A stretch of 10,926 bases of DNA from a virus (Duplodnaviria; Heunggongvirae; Uroviricota; Caudoviricetes): positions 1-10,926 of IMG/VR virus record IMGVR_UViG_2728369607_000012, one strand, 5' to 3'. Position 1 is the stretch's first letter; every line of letters starts with the position of its first letter. A model generated the notes under the pieces. The model was given only the letters and a program-made list of their open reading frames with translations, was not told the origin of the DNA and searched no databases. The position numbers were made by a program, and so were the translations under genes. Below are positions 4,342-10,926 of the stretch, in pieces.

Positions 4342-5549
4342 TCCGGTTTTTCTCCCTCGCTGATTTTTACTTCCTGTTTCCATGCCTGACTGAACTCATC
4401 ACCACCATCACGCGGTGACAGTCCTTCACGTTCGCGGGCTTCGTTCGGGCACATAACGCCGGATTTGATGCCGCACTCATAGGTGGCAAAGCGTTCGCCA
4501 GGTGTGGCCCGTAACAGGTCCGCGCTGTCAAACTCCACCTGATACCGGATACCAGGTACAGGCGAGGCCACCAGCAGGGCGTTTTTTATCTGCTGCTCAA
4601 AGTTCGCCAGCCACGGGCGCATCGTCATGGTGAGAAATGCGCGGCTTGCCTCGCTGAAATTGCTGTAGGTGCTGTTGCTGTATTCCTGCAAAAAAATCGG
4701 CGAGACGTTGAACATTCGGGCGATGTCTTCAATGGTAAAGCGACGGGAGGCCAGCCATTCAGCATCCTGATTACTCATGCCCAGCTGCTGATAGCTCATC
4801 CCCCCTTCAAGGATGGGCGTTTTTCCGGCGTTTCTGGCCCCTTTGTAGCGTTCCAGTGCGGCTAATGCCTGTTTGCCCTTCACGCCGTCCAGCCATTCGC
4901 CTGACGTGATAACCCCTGCCGCCATCATGCCATCACGCATCACGCTCGCGCCGTGGCGTTGTTGGGCCAGCCCAAGCCCCAGCGATTCGCGGCAGATGGT
5001 TACAGGTGAGCGCCCCATAAAGCCGTCATCCGTGGAGTAACGAAGGTGAAGTACTTCCCACGGTAAATAGTTGTGGGTGTTTCCGGTGTAGGCGTCAGTG
5101 ATGCAATAGCGCCAGTTGTGTTCGCCTGTCTGCTCCACGTTCACCGACTGCGGCGGGTAAGGATGTAAAGCCGCCGGAAAACCATCACGCCCCCACTGAA
5201 TAACCGCATAAGCATTACCGTTTAACAGGCAGTGGCGGATCATCATTCGCTTAAACTGGTAGGGGGTTTGCCATGCGTTCGGGCGCTCGTTGAGGATGTG
5301 ATCGACCGGATGAGAATCAAGCCACTCGCGGGCCTCCTTCCCCTTCTCATTGCGTACCAGGTACAGGTAGCATGGCATAGTAGCCACCGCCTCAGAGATG
5401 ACCGTAACGGCGTTCATGACGGCAGGCAGTGATTCCGCTGTCCCCGATGATACGTACTCACCCGCCCCCGTGTTCGATGTGCCAGCCAGCGCCATAAATT
5501 CATCAAGCGTCATGCTGCGCTGCTCTTTTTTTCTTCTGAAAGGCCACAT
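4338..5549 (-). CDS. Portal protein, HK97-type (403 aa)
   Basis: Size and sequence typical of HK97-family portal proteins; flanked by prohead protease and head-tail adaptor genes. Confidence 0.88.
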   Translation of the reverse strand: MWPFRRKKEQRSMTLDEFMALAGTSNTGAGEYVSSGTAESLPAVMNAVTVISEAVATMPCYLYLVRNEKGKEAREWLDSHPVDHILNERPNAWQTPYQFKRMMIRHCLLNGNAYAVIQWGRDGFPAALHPYPPQSVNVEQTGEHNWRYCITDAYTGNTHNYLPWEVLHLRYSTDDGFMGRSPVTICRESLGLGLAQQRHGASVMRDGMMAAGVITSGEWLDGVKGKQALAALERYKGARNAGKTPILEGGMSYQQLGMSNQDAEWLASRRFTIEDIARMFNVSPIFLQEYSNSTYSNFSEASRAFLTMTMRPWLANFEQQIKNALLVASPVPGIRYQVEFDSADLLRATPGERFATYECGIKSGVMCPNEAREREGLSPRDGGDEFSQAWKQEVKISEGEKPE

Positions 5550-5550
5550 A

Positions 5551-6123
5551 TCACACCCCCGCTAAATCCACCCACCAGCGGCGATTATCCGCACGCGGCA
5601 TTTTTTCGGGGTGCTGCTCATACAGGGAACGGCGGGCCAGCTCCACGCCGGAATCGGGGTAAGCCGGTACCGATGTAACGGTAATTTCGTACAGTTCCGC
5701 CACCAGCACGGTGCGCACGCATGGATCTGTTGTGGTATCCCATACATCCTTACGGGAGCGAAAGCCAAAGCTCATGCCGGATATATCACCACGTTTAACC
5801 AGTTCGATAACGTCGCGCCCTGTACTGGTATCCGGTGGGGTCAGTTCAAAGCGTAACCCTGTTTCATCCTCTTCCAGTTTCAGCGTGCCGGAACGGGTGC
5901 GCCCCAGTAACATACTGTGGTCATGCTCATACAGGCCGCGAACGTCATTACCCGCCGCAAGCCATTCAGTAAACGCCCCCCGCTGGAATTTTTCGTAAAA
6001 CTCACCCCATAACAGTTCTGAAAGCTTATCCCAGCGAACAACGTAGCCTGTAAGCGTGTTGCTGCCGCTGGTGGTGATTTCCGATGACCGGATTTCCATA
6101 CTCTTCATAATTTTTTCACCCAT
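5551..6123 (-). CDS. Prohead maturation protease, HK97-type (190 aa; exact start uncertain)
   Basis: Sequence typical of HK97-family prohead proteases; sits between major capsid and portal genes. Three ATGs within the first nine codons make the start ambiguous. Confidence 0.82.
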   Translation of the reverse strand: MGEKIMKSMEIRSSEITTSGSNTLTGYVVRWDKLSELLWGEFYEKFQRGAFTEWLAAGNDVRGLYEHDHSMLLGRTRSGTLKLEEDETGLRFELTPPDTSTGRDVIELVKRGDISGMSFGFRSRKDVWDTTTDPCVRTVLVAELYEITVTSVPAYPDSGVELARRSLYEQHPEKMPRADNRRWWVDLAGV

Positions 6124-6133
6124 AAAACACTAA

Positions 6134-6151
6134 AGGGGCTTTTAAGCCCCT
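6134..6151 (-). terminator. Stem-loop plus U-rich tract between capsid and protease genes (partial terminator / attenuator)
   Basis: On the minus strand: AGGGGCTT-AAAA-GCCCCT-type hairpin followed by TTAGTGTTTT immediately before the protease ATG. Confidence 0.35.
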
Positions 6152-6162
6152 TCTGTATGCTG

Positions 6163-7320
6163 TTAATCGTCGTCCTGTGGCAGTTCCAGAATCTTGATCG
6201 CGTTCGAATCCACCACGCCACCGCCTAAATATTTCTGCGTGAAAATTTTGATGAAACCCGGCTCTGTGAGGTTGTCCGGTCTGGTGCGAACACCTGTTTC
6301 GTGATCAACAATGTAGTAACCGCGTTTGAAGTCACCCAGGGCAATAACGTTATCAGGCATAAACTCCAGATATTCGACCGGAAGGCCCAGCAACGTATCA
6401 GGATCACCCGCCTGTAAACGGTCACGCCAGATGTAATCACCGTTCGCGTTCTTCACCTTCTGGAGTTTTGCCGCCGTCGTGGAGTTAACCACCCAGACCG
6501 CGTTTTTGCGGTATTTTTTACGTAATGCAAATTTCAGGTCGATCAGCGGGTCCGCAGATGTCCACGCCAGAGATTCGGAAGGTTTAATTACCTGCAACGT
6601 ACCAAAATCACGCTCTTTGTCGTTCTTCTCTGCACGGGGTACGGATAAAAAACCTTTTGCTTTTTTGTCACCGTCGCCCACAACCAGATCGCTTTCTTCG
6701 GTTTCCGTGAAGGTGTCGCCAATCTCACCCGTCAGCCATGAAAGGATGTCCACATCGGAAAAATCCACGATTTCCTGTGTGGTGCGCGGGTACGCATAGA
6801 CCGGATACAGCTTAATGCTCACCTCGTTAATCTGCGGGGTGCTGGTCTGTTCGCGTGCCTTACCCTCTTCACCGTGGTTAACGGTCGCACCGCCAGCGGA
6901 AACAAGCTGCTTAAACTCGTTGCTGCTGATTTTTTTCACGGTACAGATGCGGCGCATGGTGGACTCATCCGCCAGCATTCGCATGATTTCGGTGTTCAGT
7001 TCGGGGATAACGGTATAACCACCATCAGCGGGAACGCCTGTACTTAATGCGCGGGTTTCACCTGTCAGAATGTAGCTGCGTAGTTCTGCGGGGTCAGTGG
7101 TCTGGCTGCTTTTACCTGGCTTGCTGCGCTCTTCGTCTGCAATGGCTTCAAGGCGGGAAATGTCTTTATCGAGGGATTCAGCTTTAGCGCGTAATTCGTC
7201 AAATTTTGCGCCCTCAGCATCGTTAAGACTGCGGTTTTCTTTTTCCGCGTTCTCCAGCATGTCGCGCATCTGATTTTTAATGGCGGTTTTCTGCTGGCGT
7301 AATTCGATTATTCTCGGCAT
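6163..7320 (-). CDS. Major capsid protein, HK97-type (385 aa)
   Basis: Size typical of HK97-fold capsid proteins; N-terminal region rich in charged, coiled-coil-like sequence (delta/scaffold-like domain); followed by protease and portal genes. Confidence 0.88.
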   Translation of the reverse strand: MPRIIELRQQKTAIKNQMRDMLENAEKENRSLNDAEGAKFDELRAKAESLDKDISRLEAIADEERSKPGKSSQTTDPAELRSYILTGETRALSTGVPADGGYTVIPELNTEIMRMLADESTMRRICTVKKISSNEFKQLVSAGGATVNHGEEGKAREQTSTPQINEVSIKLYPVYAYPRTTQEIVDFSDVDILSWLTGEIGDTFTETEESDLVVGDGDKKAKGFLSVPRAEKNDKERDFGTLQVIKPSESLAWTSADPLIDLKFALRKKYRKNAVWVVNSTTAAKLQKVKNANGDYIWRDRLQAGDPDTLLGLPVEYLEFMPDNVIALGDFKRGYYIVDHETGVRTRPDNLTEPGFIKIFTQKYLGGGVVDSNAIKILELPQDDD

Positions 7321-7357
7321 AAAAAAAGTCCTGGGGTTAAGTAAGGAACTCCAGGAC
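7321..7357 (-). promoter_or_regulatory. Terminator-like hairpin plus U7 abutting the capsid start codon
   Basis: Minus strand reads GTCCTGG-AGTTCCTTACTTAACC-CCAGGAC then TTTTTTT then ATG. The only SD-like AGGA lies inside the 3' arm of the stem. Confidence 0.4.
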
Positions 7358-7410
7358 GCGGCAAAAACTCAACCGTTTTTCATAAGGGAATCAGCAATCG
7401 CACCGATCGT

Positions 7411-7458
7411 TTTCCCGCCTGGTAATGAATATTGGCGAGCACATTAACAGGCGGGAAA
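7411..7458 (-). repeat. Inverted repeat in capsid-operon leader (11-bp perfect arms, extendable to 17 bp with one mismatch)
   Basis: tttcccgcctg (7411-7421) and caggcgggaaa (7448-7458) are exact reverse complements. Confidence 0.6.
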
Positions 7459-7504
7459 GTGGCCCCAGCGTCCTGGCACCACGGGCGAGAATAATCATGA
7501 TTCA

Positions 7505-7560
7505 GTTCGGGTAAAATATGCCGATCCGCTCAGTGAACAACGTGGAACAACCACGAACAA
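7505..7560 (-). promoter_or_regulatory. Candidate promoter / activator site for the capsid operon: three helically phased TTGTTC hexamers
   Basis: On the minus strand TTGTTC recurs three times at exactly 10-bp spacing (plus-strand GAACAA at 7535-7540, 7545-7550, 7555-7560). The last copy sits 16 bp upstream of a TATTTT -10-like hexamer (plus 7513-7518). Confidence 0.3.
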
Positions 7561-7565
7561 ATAAT

Positions 7566-7601
7566 TTACAAAAAATAACAAAAAGCCGGATTGCTCCGGC
7601 T
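7566..7601 (-). terminator. Rho-independent terminator
   Basis: Minus strand: AGCCGGA-GCAA-TCCGGCT stem-loop (GNRA-type loop) followed by TTTTTGTTATTTTTT; lies downstream of the 53-aa ORF stop at 7624. Confidence 0.65.
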
Positions 7602-7623
7602 GCGTGGTGTGGTTCTGATATTC

Positions 7624-7785
7624 CTACTCTGCTAATTTGCTCAGCCCCATGTCTGCGTAAGTGCGATTTACTGCATTTCTCAGGTCTGCGTAGTTCTCCG
7701 TTGGCGGCTCCGGTGTGCCCTTGCTGCTCTGTTTTACCTGCGGGTCGTCCACCAGCCGCCCGTAAGCTGCAATTTGTGCTGTCAT
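7624..7785 (-). CDS. Small hypothetical protein (53 aa)
   Basis: ATG at 7783-7785 preceded by GAGGTGG with a 4-nt spacer; starts 9 nt after the upstream gene stop; followed by the intrinsic terminator. Below the 60-aa cutoff of the supplied ORF track; found by manual translation. Confidence 0.45.
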   Translation of the reverse strand: MTAQIAAYGRLVDDPQVKQSSKGTPEPPTENYADLRNAVNRTYADMGLSKLAE

Positions 7786-7794
7786 ATTGCCACC

Positions 7795-8100
7795 TCAGTG
7801 AAGCGATCCGGCATTGTTCTTTTTCATCTCTTCCATCATTTTTTCAGTGAGCATTACGCACTGAAACCCCATGTTTTTGATGTCTACGGGTTTCATGCCT
7901 TTGTCAGTGGATATCACAGGCAGAATATCCTGATACACATCGCGGTCAGGGTAACTAAGCACACAAAGCGCCCATGATGCCACGGGTGAGGATCCTTCGA
8001 CTGTTTCAACCCACCAGCCTGGTGTAGCTGCGCTTATTTGCAGAATCGTGATCCGTCCGTTGTGCTTGTAAAATTTTTCACCAAATTTTGGTTCGCTCAT
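7795..8100 (-). CDS. Hypothetical protein (101 aa)
   Basis: Start ATG overlaps the stop of the upstream ORF (ATGA); co-oriented in a tightly packed operon. No family recognised. Confidence 0.55.
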   Translation of the reverse strand: MSEPKFGEKFYKHNGRITILQISAATPGWWVETVEGSSPVASWALCVLSYPDRDVYQDILPVISTDKGMKPVDIKNMGFQCVMLTEKMMEEMKKNNAGSLH

Positions 8101-8348
8101 GATTCCACCTCTCCGGTTTTAACGTTGATTGTTGTTACCTGTTCCGCTTCGGCAATCTCCCGTTCTGTCAGCGTGGCAAAGTTTGCCGCCGCTGTGGTCA
8201 TGAATGCGCTTATCAGTTCGGGATGCTCCTTCGCGTATCCTTCCCCCGCGTGGCGGTCTATCGTTCTGATTGCCACCTTTAAAGCGTGCTCTGTCATGTC
8301 TAACGCTTTATATTTTGGCTGTGTTCTGTCTCTGCGTTTTTGTGTCAT
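8097..8348 (-). CDS. Hypothetical protein (83 aa from ATG 8348; start uncertain)
   Basis: The longest form (from 8396) has its N-terminus encoded by the iteron repeats, so an internal start is more plausible. ATG 8348 is abutted by GGGGAG; ATG 8297 is an alternative. Confidence 0.45.
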   Translation of the reverse strand: MTQKRRDRTQPKYKALDMTEHALKVAIRTIDRHAGEGYAKEHPELISAFMTTAAANFATLTEREIAEAEQVTTINVKTGEVES

Positions 8349-8351
8349 CTC

Positions 8352-8525
8352 CCCACCTATACCCACTTTTACTCCCCACTTTTCACAATTCCCCATTTAT
8401 CATGCTGTTTCATAAGGATTTTTTTGCTCCCCACTTTTTGGGATGTATACAGGTCAAAAAGTGGGGGATCGTGTTTAAATTTTGTTAAATTCCCCATACC
8501 CACCACTTTTGCCACCCACTTTTTA
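8352..8525. repeat. Iteron array: candidate replication origin
   Basis: CCCACTTTT-type motif in direct orientation at about 8362-8370, 8374-8383, 8429-8439, 8499-8510 and 8515-8524, and inverted at 8456-8466. The 8429-8439 and 8456-8466 copies form an 11-bp perfect inverted repeat around a 16-bp spacer containing GTATAC. An AT-rich stretch lies at 8471-8490. The array begins at the replication-protein stop codon. Confidence 0.55.
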
Positions 8526-9932
8526 CAGTGGCCCTACATCATCGCCGTCAACATAGATAACGCCGTCTTTTTCCAGCTTGCCCAGCCAGCGCCGGAAGTG
8601 CTTTATTTCGTACCCCAGTTTTTTCATGTCATCACGTAACAGCGGGATCGTGCACTTGTCGCCGTTCTGTGTGCGTGAACGGATACACCCCCATAGCGCG
8701 GTATGGTTTTCCGTCTTGTTGCCTGCCTCTTCGATGCGCTCCAGTTCAACGGGAGGGCGCGGCTTATCCACCACCACCAGCGACGTGATTAACTCCCCGT
8801 CAGCGTCGGTAAAAAGCTCCACCACCCGCAAATCATAGGCAGCCTCTTTGAGTTCCTCCGCGTCCTTCATTTTGGTGCATGAGATAACCAGCGCTTCGCT
8901 TCCTGCGTCCTCCCTGCGTATCCGGTATTCAGCATCCAGTGATGCACGAAATGCACTGGAACCGCGCGCGCCTTTCGTCTCATCCTTGCCGGAATGGTGA
9001 ACCACCAGCACCGTGGCCCCTGTGCGTCGTTTCAGTTCGTCACAACCACGGATAAACGCCCCCATATCACGGGAATCATTTTCATCATTCCCACCAAAGC
9101 AACGCGCCAGCGTATCCAGAATAATCATGCGTACAGGTTTACCCGTTTCCCGCTCCACCTGACGGGCAGCGATAACCATTTCATCAACATCAAGCGGGAC
9201 CGCCGGAAAGATGGGACGGTTTACCAGATACAGATTTTTCACCTGCTCACCGTGCACAACCTCCCAGGCTTTTACACGACGCGGAACGCCGATACCGCCT
9301 TCACCAACCACATAGAGAACAGCGCCATGCGCCACCCTGCGGCCTCCCCACTGGCGGCCCGTGGAAACGTGACACGCCCACGATCCGGCAAGGAATGATT
9401 TATAGGAACCGCTCGCCCCGTATATGCTGCAAAGCGACGATGCCGGAATAATCCCCTTTACCACGTAATCAAGCTGTGTGTCGTATCCGGTAGATCCAAC
9501 GCTCATCGGTAGCGTGGTTTTTCGCTGGGGGATTTTTTTCATGACCAGGCTTTCCCCGCGTTCCCATGCCTCCCTAAGCCGTGGAAGCTGGTCGCTCCAT
9601 TCCTCCAGCAATTCGAAATTTTCAGAAAGTAGCCGCGCCTCCTGGACTCCGGCGATCGCCAGTTTCGTGGCGATGGTTAACAGCTGCGGCTCTTCAATAT
9701 TTCCGGCGCGTATCACCGTCGCCCTGTATCGCCCATCATCAACAATCTGGAGGTTATCCAGTTCGCTTAACTGATAACGCCCCAGATAAACGGGAGGGAC
9801 TGGATCTCCTGCTTTTTTTGCCTGTGCAATGATGTAATGCTCTGCGAATGAATGAGCATCAATACCCGCAAAAATAATCGCATCGGTGTATTTATCTTTC
9901 GGTAATCGTTTTACGTTCGGTGCCAGTTTCAT
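8523..9932 (-). CDS. Replication protein with RecA/DnaB-like ATPase core (469 aa); satellite or phage replication initiator-helicase
   Basis: Walker A-like GASGSYKS, Walker B-like RMIILD, and VVHHSGKDETKGARGSSA motif typical of RepA/DnaB-like replicative ATPases; N- and C-terminal extra domains; start forms an ATGA overlap with the upstream ORF. Confidence 0.8.
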   Translation of the reverse strand: MKLAPNVKRLPKDKYTDAIIFAGIDAHSFAEHYIIAQAKKAGDPVPPVYLGRYQLSELDNLQIVDDGRYRATVIRAGNIEEPQLLTIATKLAIAGVQEARLLSENFELLEEWSDQLPRLREAWERGESLVMKKIPQRKTTLPMSVGSTGYDTQLDYVVKGIIPASSLCSIYGASGSYKSFLAGSWACHVSTGRQWGGRRVAHGAVLYVVGEGGIGVPRRVKAWEVVHGEQVKNLYLVNRPIFPAVPLDVDEMVIAARQVERETGKPVRMIILDTLARCFGGNDENDSRDMGAFIRGCDELKRRTGATVLVVHHSGKDETKGARGSSAFRASLDAEYRIRREDAGSEALVISCTKMKDAEELKEAAYDLRVVELFTDADGELITSLVVVDKPRPPVELERIEEAGNKTENHTALWGCIRSRTQNGDKCTIPLLRDDMKKLGYEIKHFRRWLGKLEKDGVIYVDGDDVGPL

Positions 9933-10228
9933 TTTTTACCCCTGAATCCGTTAATCATGGTTTTCAGCTTCTGGATGTTTGCCCGTGCCCTGGCGTTGCT
10001 GGTGGGCACGTTATGCGGCGCGGTCTGTACCAGAGAAAAATCACGCCGGAACTGATAAACAGGCATCACGCAATCATATTCGTAACCTTCACGGCGGTAA
10101 GTTACGCACCGTCCCGCCACGCCCTTAATCATTACCGTACCGCCGTACTGGTCGCGGTAAATATCACCGCGCGTAAATTTAGGGTGAGTGTTGCCACTGG
10201 CAGTTAAGCCAGAATATTTAAGTTTCAT
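9929..10228 (-). CDS. Hypothetical protein (99 aa)
   Basis: ATG at 10228 preceded by GGAGAA with an 8-nt spacer; stop overlaps the replication-protein start. No family recognised. Confidence 0.55.
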   Translation of the reverse strand: MKLKYSGLTASGNTHPKFTRGDIYRDQYGGTVMIKGVAGRCVTYRREGYEYDCVMPVYQFRRDFSLVQTAPHNVPTSNARARANIQKLKTMINGFRGKK

Positions 10229-10233
10229 TATTT

Positions 10234-10467
10234 TTATTCTCCGGTGTGGGGCGCTTTATACTGGTCGTGTAATGTCTCTATTTCCTGCAACTCATTTATT
10301 ACAGGCTCAAGAAGCGTTATTAATGCCGTGGCAATTCTTGATTTTTGTTTGTCGCGTTCATTGTCGCCAAGTGTTTCAAGCCATATGCGCAATATTTCCA
10401 TCATATTTTCACTGTGAGAAAGTGCAAGAAATACGCGATCTGTTGTTTCGTGGTAAATATCACGCAT
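10234..10467 (-). CDS. Hypothetical protein (77 aa)
   Basis: ATG at 10467 preceded by GAGGATG with a 6-nt spacer; overlaps the upstream ORF by 8 nt. Confidence 0.5.
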   Translation of the reverse strand: MRDIYHETTDRVFLALSHSENMMEILRIWLETLGDNERDKQKSRIATALITLLEPVINELQEIETLHDQYKAPHTGE

Positions 10468-10693
10468 GGCTTACATCCTCAGGAAATTTTCTTCTGTAAC
10501 GAGCCTCTGCCACATATTCCGCATAATCGGCGGCGATATTCAGTACATCAAGCCCCGTTGATTTATATTCTCTCGTGGAAAGTAAGAAAAAAGCCGCTCT
10601 AATAAGTTCTGGCATTGACGAAAGCGCATCAGCCGCATCATCAGATACGCCGGAAAATTCCTGTTTCAGGGAATTAAAACGATCATCAAGCAT
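10460..10693 (-). CDS. Hypothetical acidic protein (77 aa)
   Basis: ATG at 10693 sits 2 nt downstream of a G9 tract on the coding strand; part of the same small-gene operon. Confidence 0.45.
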   Translation of the reverse strand: MLDDRFNSLKQEFSGVSDDAADALSSMPELIRAAFFLLSTREYKSTGLDVLNIAADYAEYVAEARYRRKFPEDVSHA

Positions 10694-10926
10694 AACCCCC
10701 CCCCATTTTCACAATCAGCAATCAGGATAGCTTTGGCCTCATTCAGCGCCATATCAGCACTAAGTTGCATAACCGCCAGCGAATGAGGAACGAAAGCCCC
10801 TGCATATTCTGTTTCACTGGTGGCGTGCTTATGCGCCCTGTCAGCAATAACAGAAATATCAATAAGCGCGTGCATCAGCGTAGTGAGCGCGGCGGCTGCT
10901 GCGTCCGGTGTGGTTTTATTGTGCAT
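10666..10926 (-). CDS. Hypothetical protein (86 aa or longer; may continue beyond the window edge)
   Basis: Open frame reaches the window end, where an ATG sits at 10924-10926; the 3' end reads through the G9 tract (encodes GGG). Confidence 0.4.
   Translation of the reverse strand: MHNKTTPDAAAAALTTLMHALIDISVIADRAHKHATSETEYAGAFVPHSLAVMQLSADMALNEAKAILIADCENGGGLCLMIVLIP
10696..10704. repeat. Homopolymeric C9 (G9 on coding strand) tract
   Basis: Nine consecutive C at 10696-10704, read directly from the sequence. Confidence 0.9.

Follow-up and report, generated by a model that had tools for sequence, protein, structure and literature searches.

The three small ORFs that lie between the replication origin and the capsid operon in the 10,926-nucleotide stretch of virus DNA analysed here (the window) very probably represent the 3' end of the early operon of a capsid-forming PICI (cf-PICI), ORF1 and ORF2 being real genes and ORF3 the product of a 508-bp deletion. 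The element itself is a cf-PICI of the EcCIEDL933 type from E. coli, i.e. of a type already known, and all three ORFs are already in RefSeq. EcCIEDL933, which is O-island 51 / CP-933C of E. coli O157:H7, is the prototype of these islands. The early operon would comprise regulation and replication genes, and in this island family the canonical post-origin module reads ORF1, an optional ORF2, ssb, perC and a terminator, followed by a leader and the HK97-like capsid and packaging operon. The order ORF1-ssb-perC is found in the CFT073 and O157 islands, and ORF1-ORF2-ssb-perC in the related islands L001 and L016. The features of the window to which we refer are, in the order of transcription on the minus strand:

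8523..9932, minus strand, replication protein, RepA-type AAA_25 helicase of 469 aa, the upstream neighbour of the three-ORF unit
8349..8524, no strand assigned, replication origin, iteron array (AAAAGTGGGG on the minus strand), from a repeat search (families D1-D4 direct, I1-I5 inverted)
8097..8348, minus strand, ORF1, conserved PICI-specific small protein of 83 aa (phrog_1231, 6.9e-53, profile positions 1-83)
7795..8100, minus strand, ORF2, optional beta-rich (SH3-like) protein of 101 aa with a C-terminal helix, its start overlapping the ORF1 stop
7711..7785, minus strand, 5' part of ORF3, RBS-proximal start of ssb with codons 1-25, of the OB fold just the first beta-strand
7711..7715, no strand assigned, deletion junction, 5-bp microhomology CGGTG (plus) / CACCG (minus), by exact string match
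7624..7710, minus strand, 3' part of ORF3, perC codons 55-82 with the stop codon, last third of the PerC domain
7568..7601, minus strand, predicted intrinsic terminator ending the early/replication operon, AGCCGGA-GCAA-TCCGGCT and a T-rich tail, from a terminator scan
7321..7567, minus strand, capsid-operon leader, strongly structured (fold z-score -5.36)
6163..7320, minus strand, gene of the major capsid protein, which opens the HK97-like packaging operon and is the downstream neighbour of the unit, from the ORF list

Identity of the island

The window is 100% identical to an island in a public E. coli assembly, L008, and the two blocks that flank the deletion are 99.6% and 95.8% identical to L001. 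L008 contains int, alpA, the AAA_25 rep gene and the genes for capsid, protease, portal, connector, HNH, TerS and TerL; its 406-aa integrase and Phage_AlpA lie outside the window, beside rcnR. Inside the window the replication protein (Pfam AAA_25, 2e-43; phrog_2850, 5.9e-224; 'helicase RepA family protein' in the 95.8%-identical part of L001) is followed by an iteron-type origin, and packaging genes are found as ORFs of 385, 190, 403, 126 (112), 98, 146, 118 and 553 aa, whose functions are annotated in the 99.6%-identical part of L001 and which have matching Pfam families in L008. The capsid gene in particular is annotated as 'phage major capsid protein' in L001 and matches Pfam Phage_capsid in L008. 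From int to the adjoining host genes, neither the annotation of L001 and L008 nor the Pfam matches give any tail or lysis gene. EcCIEDL933 is induced by a helper phage through AlpA and is transferred in small capsids carrying helper tails (bioRxiv 10.1101/2022.09.08.507074). A scan of the whole window against Rfam at gathering thresholds returned no RNA family, and a DNA search of the three-ORF region against phage records gave no match; part of this region is matched in about 1,578 of 5,426 genomes.

Layout of the three-ORF unit

All three ORFs picked out in the sequence-only reading are present on the minus strand, namely ORF1 of 83 aa (8097-8348), ORF2 of 101 aa (7795-8100) and ORF3 of 53 aa (7624-7785), and the unit is indeed bounded, as was claimed there, by the origin iterons on one side and an intrinsic terminator (7584-7601) on the other. 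The AAAAGTGGGG iterons occur in at least six copies and in both orientations, the last copies abutting the ORF1 start, and the origin sits between rep and the first post-origin gene. A gap between rep and the first gene is likewise found 5' of an ORF2-like gene in the islands L005, where iterons are visible, and L018, where only the gap is seen. The geometry also fits the notion of a discrete coupled unit: ORF1 and ORF2 overlap in the ATGA at 8097-8100, ORF2 and ORF3 are spaced by 9 nt, and direct reading finds a GAGGTG-like Shine-Dalgarno sequence 4-5 nt upstream of all three starts, that of ORF3 spanning the ORF2 stop. Going by geometry only, the unit would be translationally coupled and co-transcribed, and this transcript would probably include rep and start from an AlpA-dependent promoter.

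The hairpin at the far end of the unit (7601-7584, minus strand) consists of a 7-bp stem with five G-C pairs and a GCAA loop, is followed by TTTTTGTTATTTTTT and starts 22 nt past the ORF3 stop, with a folding energy of -12.6 kcal/mol. It is a G+C-rich hairpin with a U tract located 3' of a stop codon, as in an intrinsic terminator, and in related islands the stretch 7580-7602 occurs twice, on either side of a 354-nt insertion.

ORF1 and ORF2

The mechanical frame of ORF1 reaches 8396 and gives 99 aa, while the 83-aa form starts at the ATG at 8348. We rejected the longer form, the extra 16 residues of which are translated iterons; its exact sequence is absent from a collection of 15 billion proteins, the PHROG profile begins at residue 17, and PGAP annotates the 83-aa form. 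Homologues of ORF1 fall into 169 clusters from E. coli, Shigella and Citrobacter, their alignment contains 26 invariant columns, and pN/pS against relatives is 0.12-0.26, by which measure the gene is under purifying selection. A tblastn search of 50,697 phage records yielded no homologue. In all E. coli islands examined the genes past the origin begin with ORF1, which is coupled to ssb in the islands that lack ORF2. It is a real, conserved and satellite-specific gene, which may serve as a reasonable marker and is a core component, as yet uncharacterised, of E. coli PICIs. The AlphaFold model (pLDDT 68) contains helices at residues 11-34 and 43-74, and the predicted fold is a two-helix hairpin with a basic, variable N-terminal tail; a role in replication, as an origin accessory or as a small adaptor, may be suggested with low confidence.

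ORF2, the structure model of which has a pLDDT of 73, shares about 30-38% identity with its relatives, with 17 invariant positions and the motif GWW...SP.A.WA.C...LP...GM.P. Two other enterobacterial satellites, one of them a Morganella cf-PICI-like element, have remote relatives of ORF2 in the corresponding slot after the origin. ORF2 is a real but optional accessory gene, and both ORF1 and ORF2 are, judging by these data, more than chance ORFs. Two further hits were discarded: a protein of 1399 aa (P0188) came up falsely in the exhaustive search through its PAWWKQG repeats, and one of 152 aa (P0187) is a frame-fused ORF1-ORF2 gene call on a partial contig and no genuine fusion. Neither ORF shows a DNA-binding or regulator signature in Pfam, NCBIfam or the structure models; the Pfam matches were dismissed as sub-threshold noise (TruB_C_2, 0.042; RhoGEF67_u1, 0.14), an NCBIfam scan of all three ORFs returned nothing, and fold searches with the two moderate-confidence models gave no informative match.

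Composition and origin of ORF3

ORF3 consists of SSB residues 1-25 joined in frame to PerC residues 55-82. Its N-terminus differs from the 136-aa SSB of L001 in one residue (Q16 versus L16), and its C-terminal part is identical to the PerC C-terminus of both L001 and L016. Breakpoints were set by exact string matching: on each side of the junction there is an exact 120-nt match to the intact L016 allele, in which CACCG occurs in two copies 508 bp apart, whereas the window has one copy, and the BLAST blocks against L001 overlap at window positions 7711-7719. In near-identical islands both genes are intact and encode proteins of 136 aa (SSB) and 82 aa (PerC). A 508-bp deletion between the CACCG repeats removed ssb codons 26-136, a 10-nt spacer and perC codons 1-54, and left a chimera that keeps the RBS of ssb and the stop and terminator of perC but is devoid of the OB fold and of the first two-thirds of the PerC domain. 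It is very unlikely that the intact alleles arose by insertion and are not the ancestral state, because both ssb and perC of these alleles encode full-length Pfam domains.

Against Pfam PerC (PF06069) ORF3 aligns at positions 50-77 of 90 only and scores 22.9 bits at a cut-off of 22.6, whereas intact PerC scores 122.3 bits over positions 1-77 and another intact relative 110.8 bits over positions 1-89, so that ORF3 does not contain a full PerC domain. Nor does it contain a complete OB-fold SSB, there being a weak match to the SSB family phrog_44 over residues 1-25 and none to Pfam SSB (PF00436), which the intact SSB matches at 6.6e-16 over positions 4-101. The 53-aa ORF had been put forward as having a good RBS, and the open frame and the RBS are certainly there, but the RBS is that of ssb and the ORF is a deletion chimera; most likely, to go by its composition, it is a non-functional remnant. 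PGAP treats the same DNA inconsistently: one genome has two partial pseudogenes here, another a 53-aa CDS of the PerC family. The entry WP_000126701.1, a 53-aa "PerC family transcriptional regulator", is this ssb'-'perC deletion chimera and the regulator label is unwarranted. The value of the observation lies more in annotation hygiene, with little for discovery.

Spread of the deletion allele

The exact 53-aa sequence is found on 493 contigs (735 index blocks). The allele occurs at three sites, pntB, roxA-phoQ and rcnR-thiM, on islands with three integrase types that are 66-90% identical to each other and with replication proteins of 469, 465 and 584 aa. Among nine sampled deletion-bearing loci that extend through TerL, the capsid operon is complete in seven. 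As a separate observation, the packaging operon may be decaying in two sampled carriers, L007 having no TerS call and L010 a split HNH gene. In complete genomes there are 3 deletion alleles versus 24 closely related intact alleles, and 13 copies of ORF3 comprise two DNA variants that differ by 2 non-synonymous and 0 synonymous changes, these being the only 2 differences. Through this allele, otherwise intact islands at three different attachment sites are natural double knock-outs of ssb and perC, which offers a ready test of whether either gene is needed in the cf-PICI life cycle. SSB and PerC may be dispensable for island propagation; the spread over attachment sites could however reflect recombination between co-resident islands instead of continued mobility.

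Possible functions of the unit

The 53-aa peptide may conceivably have kept some function or gained a new one, since the fusion preserves the reading frame together with the RBS, start, stop and terminator, and the allele is common. In its strongest form this notion makes the chimera a selected neo-functional micro-protein, e.g. a dominant-negative partner of PerC/Pch, of ANR-type regulators or of SSB-interacting proteins, selection on which would then explain why the allele is common, and it may draw further on the spread of the exact sequence over three backbone types and on the conserved PerC C-terminal segment, which still reaches the Pfam gathering score. However, about 1 in 3 deletions would be expected a priori to be in frame, both domains are gutted, purifying selection is not apparent from the two differences between the variants, the allele is in the minority in complete genomes, and hitch-hiking on mobile, recombining islands accounts for its spread, all of which makes the notion highly improbable. 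Very doubtful as well is the earlier suggestion that the unit encodes a regulator of the capsid-operon leader, in the sense that the packaging operon is activated or antiterminated by a product of the unit or, in intact islands, by PerC. In its favour, the slot ancestrally holds a PerC-family regulator, which is the last early gene directly 5' of the morphogenesis genes in all intact relatives examined (L001, L016, CFT073, O157 and L005). Furthermore, a promoter scan of the leader found 0 sigma-70-like sites, the leader is structured, and a second, terminator-like hairpin with U7 lies directly before the capsid ATG (-14.1 kcal/mol), and some positive regulator is therefore plausible. Yet in the window 54 of the 82 PerC residues are lost while the capsid operon and its leader are intact, and the leader shows no obvious compensating change, being 98.4-100% identical across islands with intact or deleted perC and differing over 303 nt by 2 and 4 substitutions from the perC-intact L001 and L016, respectively. 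The deletion allele is moreover widespread on different island backbones, alpA overexpression is the published driver of EcCIEDL933 reproduction and capsid production, and PerC homologues, which are described as regulators of host virulence loci that activate or repress LEE, are also present in PICIs without capsid genes such as EcCIMP1 (PMC11773190, PMC6092414). As for ORF1 and ORF2, nothing ties either of them to the leader, and the lack of any DNA-binding or regulator signature in both is a further argument against such a function. A wider proposal, that PerC-family proteins are native late-operon activators whose action on LEE is cross-talk, and that ORF2, which with its relatives directly follows the origin in satellites of E. 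coli, of Morganella and in a third one from enterobacteria, is a new satellite-specific factor that could act on the helper phage or the capsid operon, is quite unlikely; if true, the deletion allele would mark a lineage of cf-PICIs that has come to depend on read-through or on PerC provided in trans from other islands or prophages.

The other suggestion of the sequence-only reading, accessory cargo, is best put as ORF1 and/or ORF2 being phage-interference or anti-phage defence genes in a variable pre-packaging slot. This holds insofar as the literature treats the space between origin and packaging operon as variable and accessory, the region before the packaging operon being a variable cf-PICI region 'expected to encode immune systems' (bioRxiv 10.1101/2025.02.11.637232), and it agrees with ORF2 being optional among closely related islands and with its relatives recurring in the same slot of the Morganella element and the other satellite. 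Interference genes are likewise located in the post-ori region of Gram-positive PICIs. A search of PADLOC-DB at E <= 1 however gave no match for ORF1, ORF2, ORF3, intact PerC or intact SSB. ORF1 is furthermore conserved and not variable, as seen from its homologous clusters and from the share of genomes that match part of the region, and ORF1 and ORF2 are single small proteins without enzymatic domains. In addition, when EcCICFT073 post-ori genes were singly expressed, lambda plaquing was reduced by c1503 (rppA) only (PMC6739421); the ORF1 homologue was presumably among the genes of that set, as were ssb and perC. A cargo function is hence unlikely, and we prefer to regard the unit as the 3' end of the cf-PICI early operon.

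Comparison with known systems

ORF3 resembles SSB (PF00436) in using the ssb RBS, start codon and first 25 codons, but only the first beta-strand is left and neither the OB fold nor the C-terminal acidic tip is present, and binding of ssDNA would therefore not be expected. With the PerC/Pch family (EPEC PerC, EHEC PchA-E) it shares the 28 C-terminal PerC residues, corresponding to PF06069 positions 50-77. Intact PerC relatives score 110-122 bits and have a weak ANR match over residues 7-52, whereas ORF3 lacks PerC residues 1-54, i.e. the whole ANR-like region, and has an N-terminus derived from SSB. The PerC homologues carried by PICIs reportedly have, unlike EPEC PerC, no effect on LEE1 or repress it (PMC11773190).

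EcCICFT073, a classical PICI that does not form capsids, is similar in having an ORF1 homologue (85 aa, about 71% identity) followed by ssb and perC and then by morphogenesis and redirection genes. It differs in that it has no ORF2, that its ssb and perC are intact, and that its downstream genes are another, capsid-like/decoration set and rppA in place of a full HK97-type packaging operon.

The overall layout is the same as in EcCIEDL933, although the two islands differ in several respects. The replication protein is of the DUF927 type in EcCIEDL933 and an AAA_25 helicase in the island of the window; EcCIEDL933 has no ORF2, and its ssb and perC genes are intact (136 aa and 90 aa, respectively), whereas the window has ORF2 and the ssb-perC deletion; EcCIEDL933 carries an extra 74-aa ORF and a second copy of the terminator before the leader, an insertion that the window lacks; and the island of the window resides at another attachment site with an integrase that is 66% identical. 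Shared by both are int, alpA, the small early genes, DUF4222, rep, the iteron origin, ORF1 (the EcCIEDL933 homologue likewise being of 83 aa and in the same position), the ssb/perC slot, the terminator and the leader, and further downstream the HK97-like capsid, protease, portal, connectors, HNH, TerS and TerL.

Organization of the post-origin region

The three ORFs of 83, 101 and 53 aa (ORF1, ORF2 and ORF3) found between the iteron origin and the capsid-operon leader are located exactly where the sequence-only reading had placed them, as seen from both the ORF list and the sequence itself, and they are indeed closely packed, with ORF1 and ORF2 overlapping in ATGA and a gap of 9 nt separating ORF2 from ORF3. 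A GAGGTG-like Shine-Dalgarno sequence is present 4-5 nt 5' of all three starts, in agreement with the good RBS ascribed to the 53-aa ORF, and this RBS is that of ssb. According to the ORF list every gene of the window is carried by the minus strand.

Features of the window
9929-10926 (within), minus: three small early ORFs of 77, 77 and 86 aa (phrog_2196, phrog_2512/24341)
9929-10228, minus: DUF4222 protein, 99 aa (PF13973, 2.1e-23)
8523-9932, minus: AAA_25/RepA-type helicase, 469 aa (Pfam, 2e-43)
8349-8524, intergenic: iteron stretch with copies of AAAAGTGGGG in both orientations (repeat search)
from ATG at 8348, minus: ORF1, 83 aa; mechanical ORF to 8396 (99 aa)
7795-8100, minus: ORF2, 101 aa
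7624-7785, minus: ORF3, 53 aa
7601-7584, minus: terminator-like hairpin and T tract (terminator scan, folding)
7321-7623, minus: ORF-free leader, 303 nt between the ORF3 stop and the capsid start
6163 down to 979, minus: HK97-type operon (capsid, protease, portal, head-closure, connector, HNH, TerS, TerL)
675-965, minus: 96-aa ORF directly after the large terminase gene

The DUF4222 gene and the three small ORFs 5' of rep are conserved in the CFT073 and O157 islands and belong with rep to the same early operon. At the other end, the 96-aa ORF corresponds to a hypothetical gene of 93-96 aa that all related islands have conserved at their distal end; its counterpart in one of these, L003, is the last island gene before flanking host DNA, and elsewhere it is the last called ORF of >56 aa.

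ORF3 is the product of a deletion between ssb and perC

Residues 21-49 of ORF3 match the last third of the PerC domain in Pfam (22.9 bits against a cut-off of 22.6), and residues 1-25 give a weak SSB match in PHROGs. The nearest relative in a complete genome, the NZ_CP027368.1 island, is collinear with the window (99.6% identity on one side, 95.8% on the other) and carries in place of ORF3 two genes, one for a single-stranded DNA-binding protein (SSB) of 136 aa and one for a PerC-family regulator of 82 aa; the ORF3 translation consists of residues 1-25 of the former followed by residues 55-82 of the latter. The intact allele of the E. coli strain 10 island (L016) matches the window exactly over 120 nt either side of the junction, and relative to it 508 bp are missing, comprising ssb codons 26-136, the 10-nt spacer and perC codons 1-54. 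The boundaries of the deletion are formed by a 5-bp direct repeat with the coding-strand sequence CACCG (window 7711-7715). Since ssb and perC lie in different frames, it is by accident that the fusion is in frame (prior chance, about one in three). Pfam recognizes both intact proteins, SSB with 58.7 bits (PF00436, positions 4-101) and PerC with 122.3 bits (PF06069, positions 1-77); the chimera has no OB fold and is furthermore devoid of the N-terminal two-thirds of PerC, including a part with weak resemblance to ANR regulators. RefSeq annotates this same DNA inconsistently between genomes, as two partial pseudogenes in NZ_CP073589.1 ("PerC family... missing N-terminus" and "single-stranded DNA-binding protein... 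missing C-terminus") and as a 53-aa CDS for a PerC family transcriptional regulator in NZ_CP129259.1 (WP_000126701.1).

In many related islands (L003 at 8627-9003, L004, L007, L010, L011, L013 and L017) the interval from perC to the leader contains a 354-nt insertion, at a point corresponding to window 7580-7602. Within it lie the gene of a hypothetical protein of 74 aa (WP_001132078.1) and an ORF of 37 aa, for which the PGAP label 'trigger factor' is almost certainly a mis-annotation. The 23-nt direct repeat on either side of the insertion includes the terminator hairpin, and insertion-bearing islands therefore have two terminator copies.

Distribution of the deletion allele

The exact 53-aa sequence was found in 493 contigs of a large protein collection and in 735 blocks of a position index. 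Of the complete genomes whose module is closely similar, 3 have the deletion and 24 the intact ssb-perC pair. Ten deletion loci were sampled. They are found at three places on the chromosome (pntB/mdtJI, roxA/phoQ and rcnR/thiM), their integrases share 66-90% identity among themselves, and they encode three replication proteins, namely AAA_25 helicases of 469 and 465 aa (81-83% identical) and a D5_N primase of 584 aa; the 354-nt insertion with its 74-aa ORF is present in some of these loci and absent in others. The chimera itself occurs in only two DNA variants among 13 copies, with two non-synonymous differences between them. Of the 9 sampled loci that reach through TerL, 7 have a complete capsid and packaging operon; of the other two, L007 has no TerS call (14028-14510) and L010 a split HNH gene (13440-13880), and decay of the packaging operon is possible in both. 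The 303-nt leader of the window differs from the leaders of the perC-intact islands L001 (NZ_CP027368.1) and L016 by only 2 and 4 substitutions. Our reading is that a single deletion event took place and that its product was later shuffled among recombining, probably still mobile islands. It would follow, although this is no proof, that island propagation can do without SSB and without PerC.

ORF1 and ORF2

ORF1 matches phrog_1231 end to end (6.9e-53), with profile positions 1-83 aligned to residues 17-99 of the 99-aa form. This longer form was rejected: its extension is translated iterons, the collection does not contain this exact sequence, and the PGAP call is for 83 aa. The iterons extend right up to the start codon of the 83-aa form, and public gene calls vary (83, 89, 92, 99, 104, 127 and 142 aa) because in-frame ATG and GTG codons occur inside the origin iterons (window 8349-8396). 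The 169 homologous clusters are nearly all from E. coli or Shigella, with one from Citrobacter, and no homologue was found in deposited phage genomes. The N-terminal tail is basic and variable and the core strongly conserved, with 26 invariant positions; pN/pS is 0.12 and 0.26 against two diverged copies, which marks ORF1 as a real gene. The AlphaFold model, of moderate confidence (pLDDT 68), has two long helices, 11-34 and 43-74, and a Foldseek search with it against the PDB found nothing. In both the O157 (EcCIEDL933-type) and CFT073 islands the ORF1 homologue comes first after the origin and overlaps the ssb start, and the canonical post-origin module is therefore ORF1-ssb-perC. Synteny, as the sole basis, tentatively suggests a role for ORF1 tied to replication or the origin.

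ORF2 matches phrog_27268 (1.3e-68) and belongs to a very narrow family of 8 clusters at 90% identity; it is optional, since neither the O157 nor the CFT073 island has it. When 1.84 billion representatives were searched exhaustively with HMMER, three genuine remote relatives of 107-119 aa emerged, which share with ORF2 the invariant residues S23, A25, G28, W29, W30, S38, P39 and A41, and furthermore W43, A44, C46, L60, P61, G68, M69 and P71. One relative (P0189) is found in a different satellite, L005, where DUF4222 is followed, at 4596-6158, by a DUF927 rep, an origin whose GTTGTCTCA iterons surround an AT-rich core, the ORF2-like gene, a member of the ProQ/FinO family in the position of SSB, and a PerC of 95 aa. 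An arrangement of small ORF, nucleic-acid-binding protein and PerC thus recurs after the origin with non-homologous middle genes. Another is found in a 24.7-kb circular Morganella morganii record, where a toprim primase is followed by a gap, the ORF2-like gene, a 65-aa ORF and an HK97-type capsid operon. This record (p46903_1, NZ_CP070523.1) is listed as a non-mobilizable 'plasmid', and besides an antirepressor and an Icd-like protein it encodes capsid, protease, portal, HNH and terminase as a full set of the HK97 type. Rather than a plasmid, it looks to be a satellite of the capsid-forming PICI (cf-PICI) type assembled as a circle. Given these two positions, the ORF2 family recurs in the post-origin slot of enterobacterial satellites.

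Regulator or cargo

The notion that this slot holds a regulator or cargo stands in part. Since a PerC-family regulator is the final gene before the terminator and the morphogenesis genes in every intact relative, the guess of a regulator was not unreasonable, and features of the capsid-operon leader are in keeping with it. A promoter scan found no sigma-70-like promoter in the leader, which folds unusually well (z = -5.4) and ends in a hairpin, GUCCUGGAGUU...AACCCCAGGAC (-14.1 kcal/mol; 7321-7365, minus strand), followed by U7 directly at the capsid ATG. This hairpin holds the only AGGA able to act as capsid Shine-Dalgarno and looks like a terminator or a translational-control element. However, the PerC regulator of the window is gutted and yet everything downstream is intact, PICIs without capsid genes also bear PerC homologues, alpA overexpression is the means used for driving reproduction and capsid production of EcCIEDL933 (bioRxiv 10.1101/2025.02.11.637232), and nothing ties ORF1 or ORF2 to transcription. 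In published work, moreover, PICI-borne PerC homologues figure as regulators of virulence loci of the host: LEE is activated by some, the EcCIEDL933 and EcCICFT073 homologues are reported to leave LEE1 unaffected, and the EcCIMP1 protein represses LEE1 (PMC6092414, PMC11773190); pchE acts on curli and flagella (PMC6265319, PMC7369912).

That the three ORFs are accessory cargo fits the published view, in which the regions on either side of the packaging module vary and would be expected to carry immune systems (bioRxiv 10.1101/2025.02.11.637232), but a PADLOC search gave no match, and of the post-origin genes of EcCICFT073 only rppA is reported to have interfered with lambda (PMC6739421). A combined scenario, with PerC as the native late activator of satellites, this lineage using PerC supplied in trans, and ORF2 as a new satellite-specific factor, seems to us quite improbable.

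Relation to known islands

An island in a public E. coli assembly (L008, GCA_001466815.1) matches the window with 100% identity along its entire 10,926 bases; this island additionally has a tyrosine integrase and an AlpA-family gene adjoining rcnR and ends before thiM. Its architecture, in which int, alpA, rep and an iteron origin are combined with a complete set of HK97-like head and packaging genes but none for tails or lysis, is of the capsid-forming PICI type with EcCIEDL933 as prototype (bioRxiv 10.1101/2022.09.08.507074; 10.1101/2025.02.11.637232). Parts of the 1-kb three-ORF region are matched in 1,578 of 5,426 complete E. coli genomes, and none of 50,697 phage records matches it. That E. 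coli PICIs contain perC and ssb is already known from databases and papers, as are the element type and the sequences of the three proteins, and the three-ORF unit represents the ordinary biology of a mosaic mobile element; what is added to this is only the explicit demonstration that a deletion gave rise to the 53-aa "PerC family" entry (ssb'-'perC), and the wide spread of this allele across island backbones.
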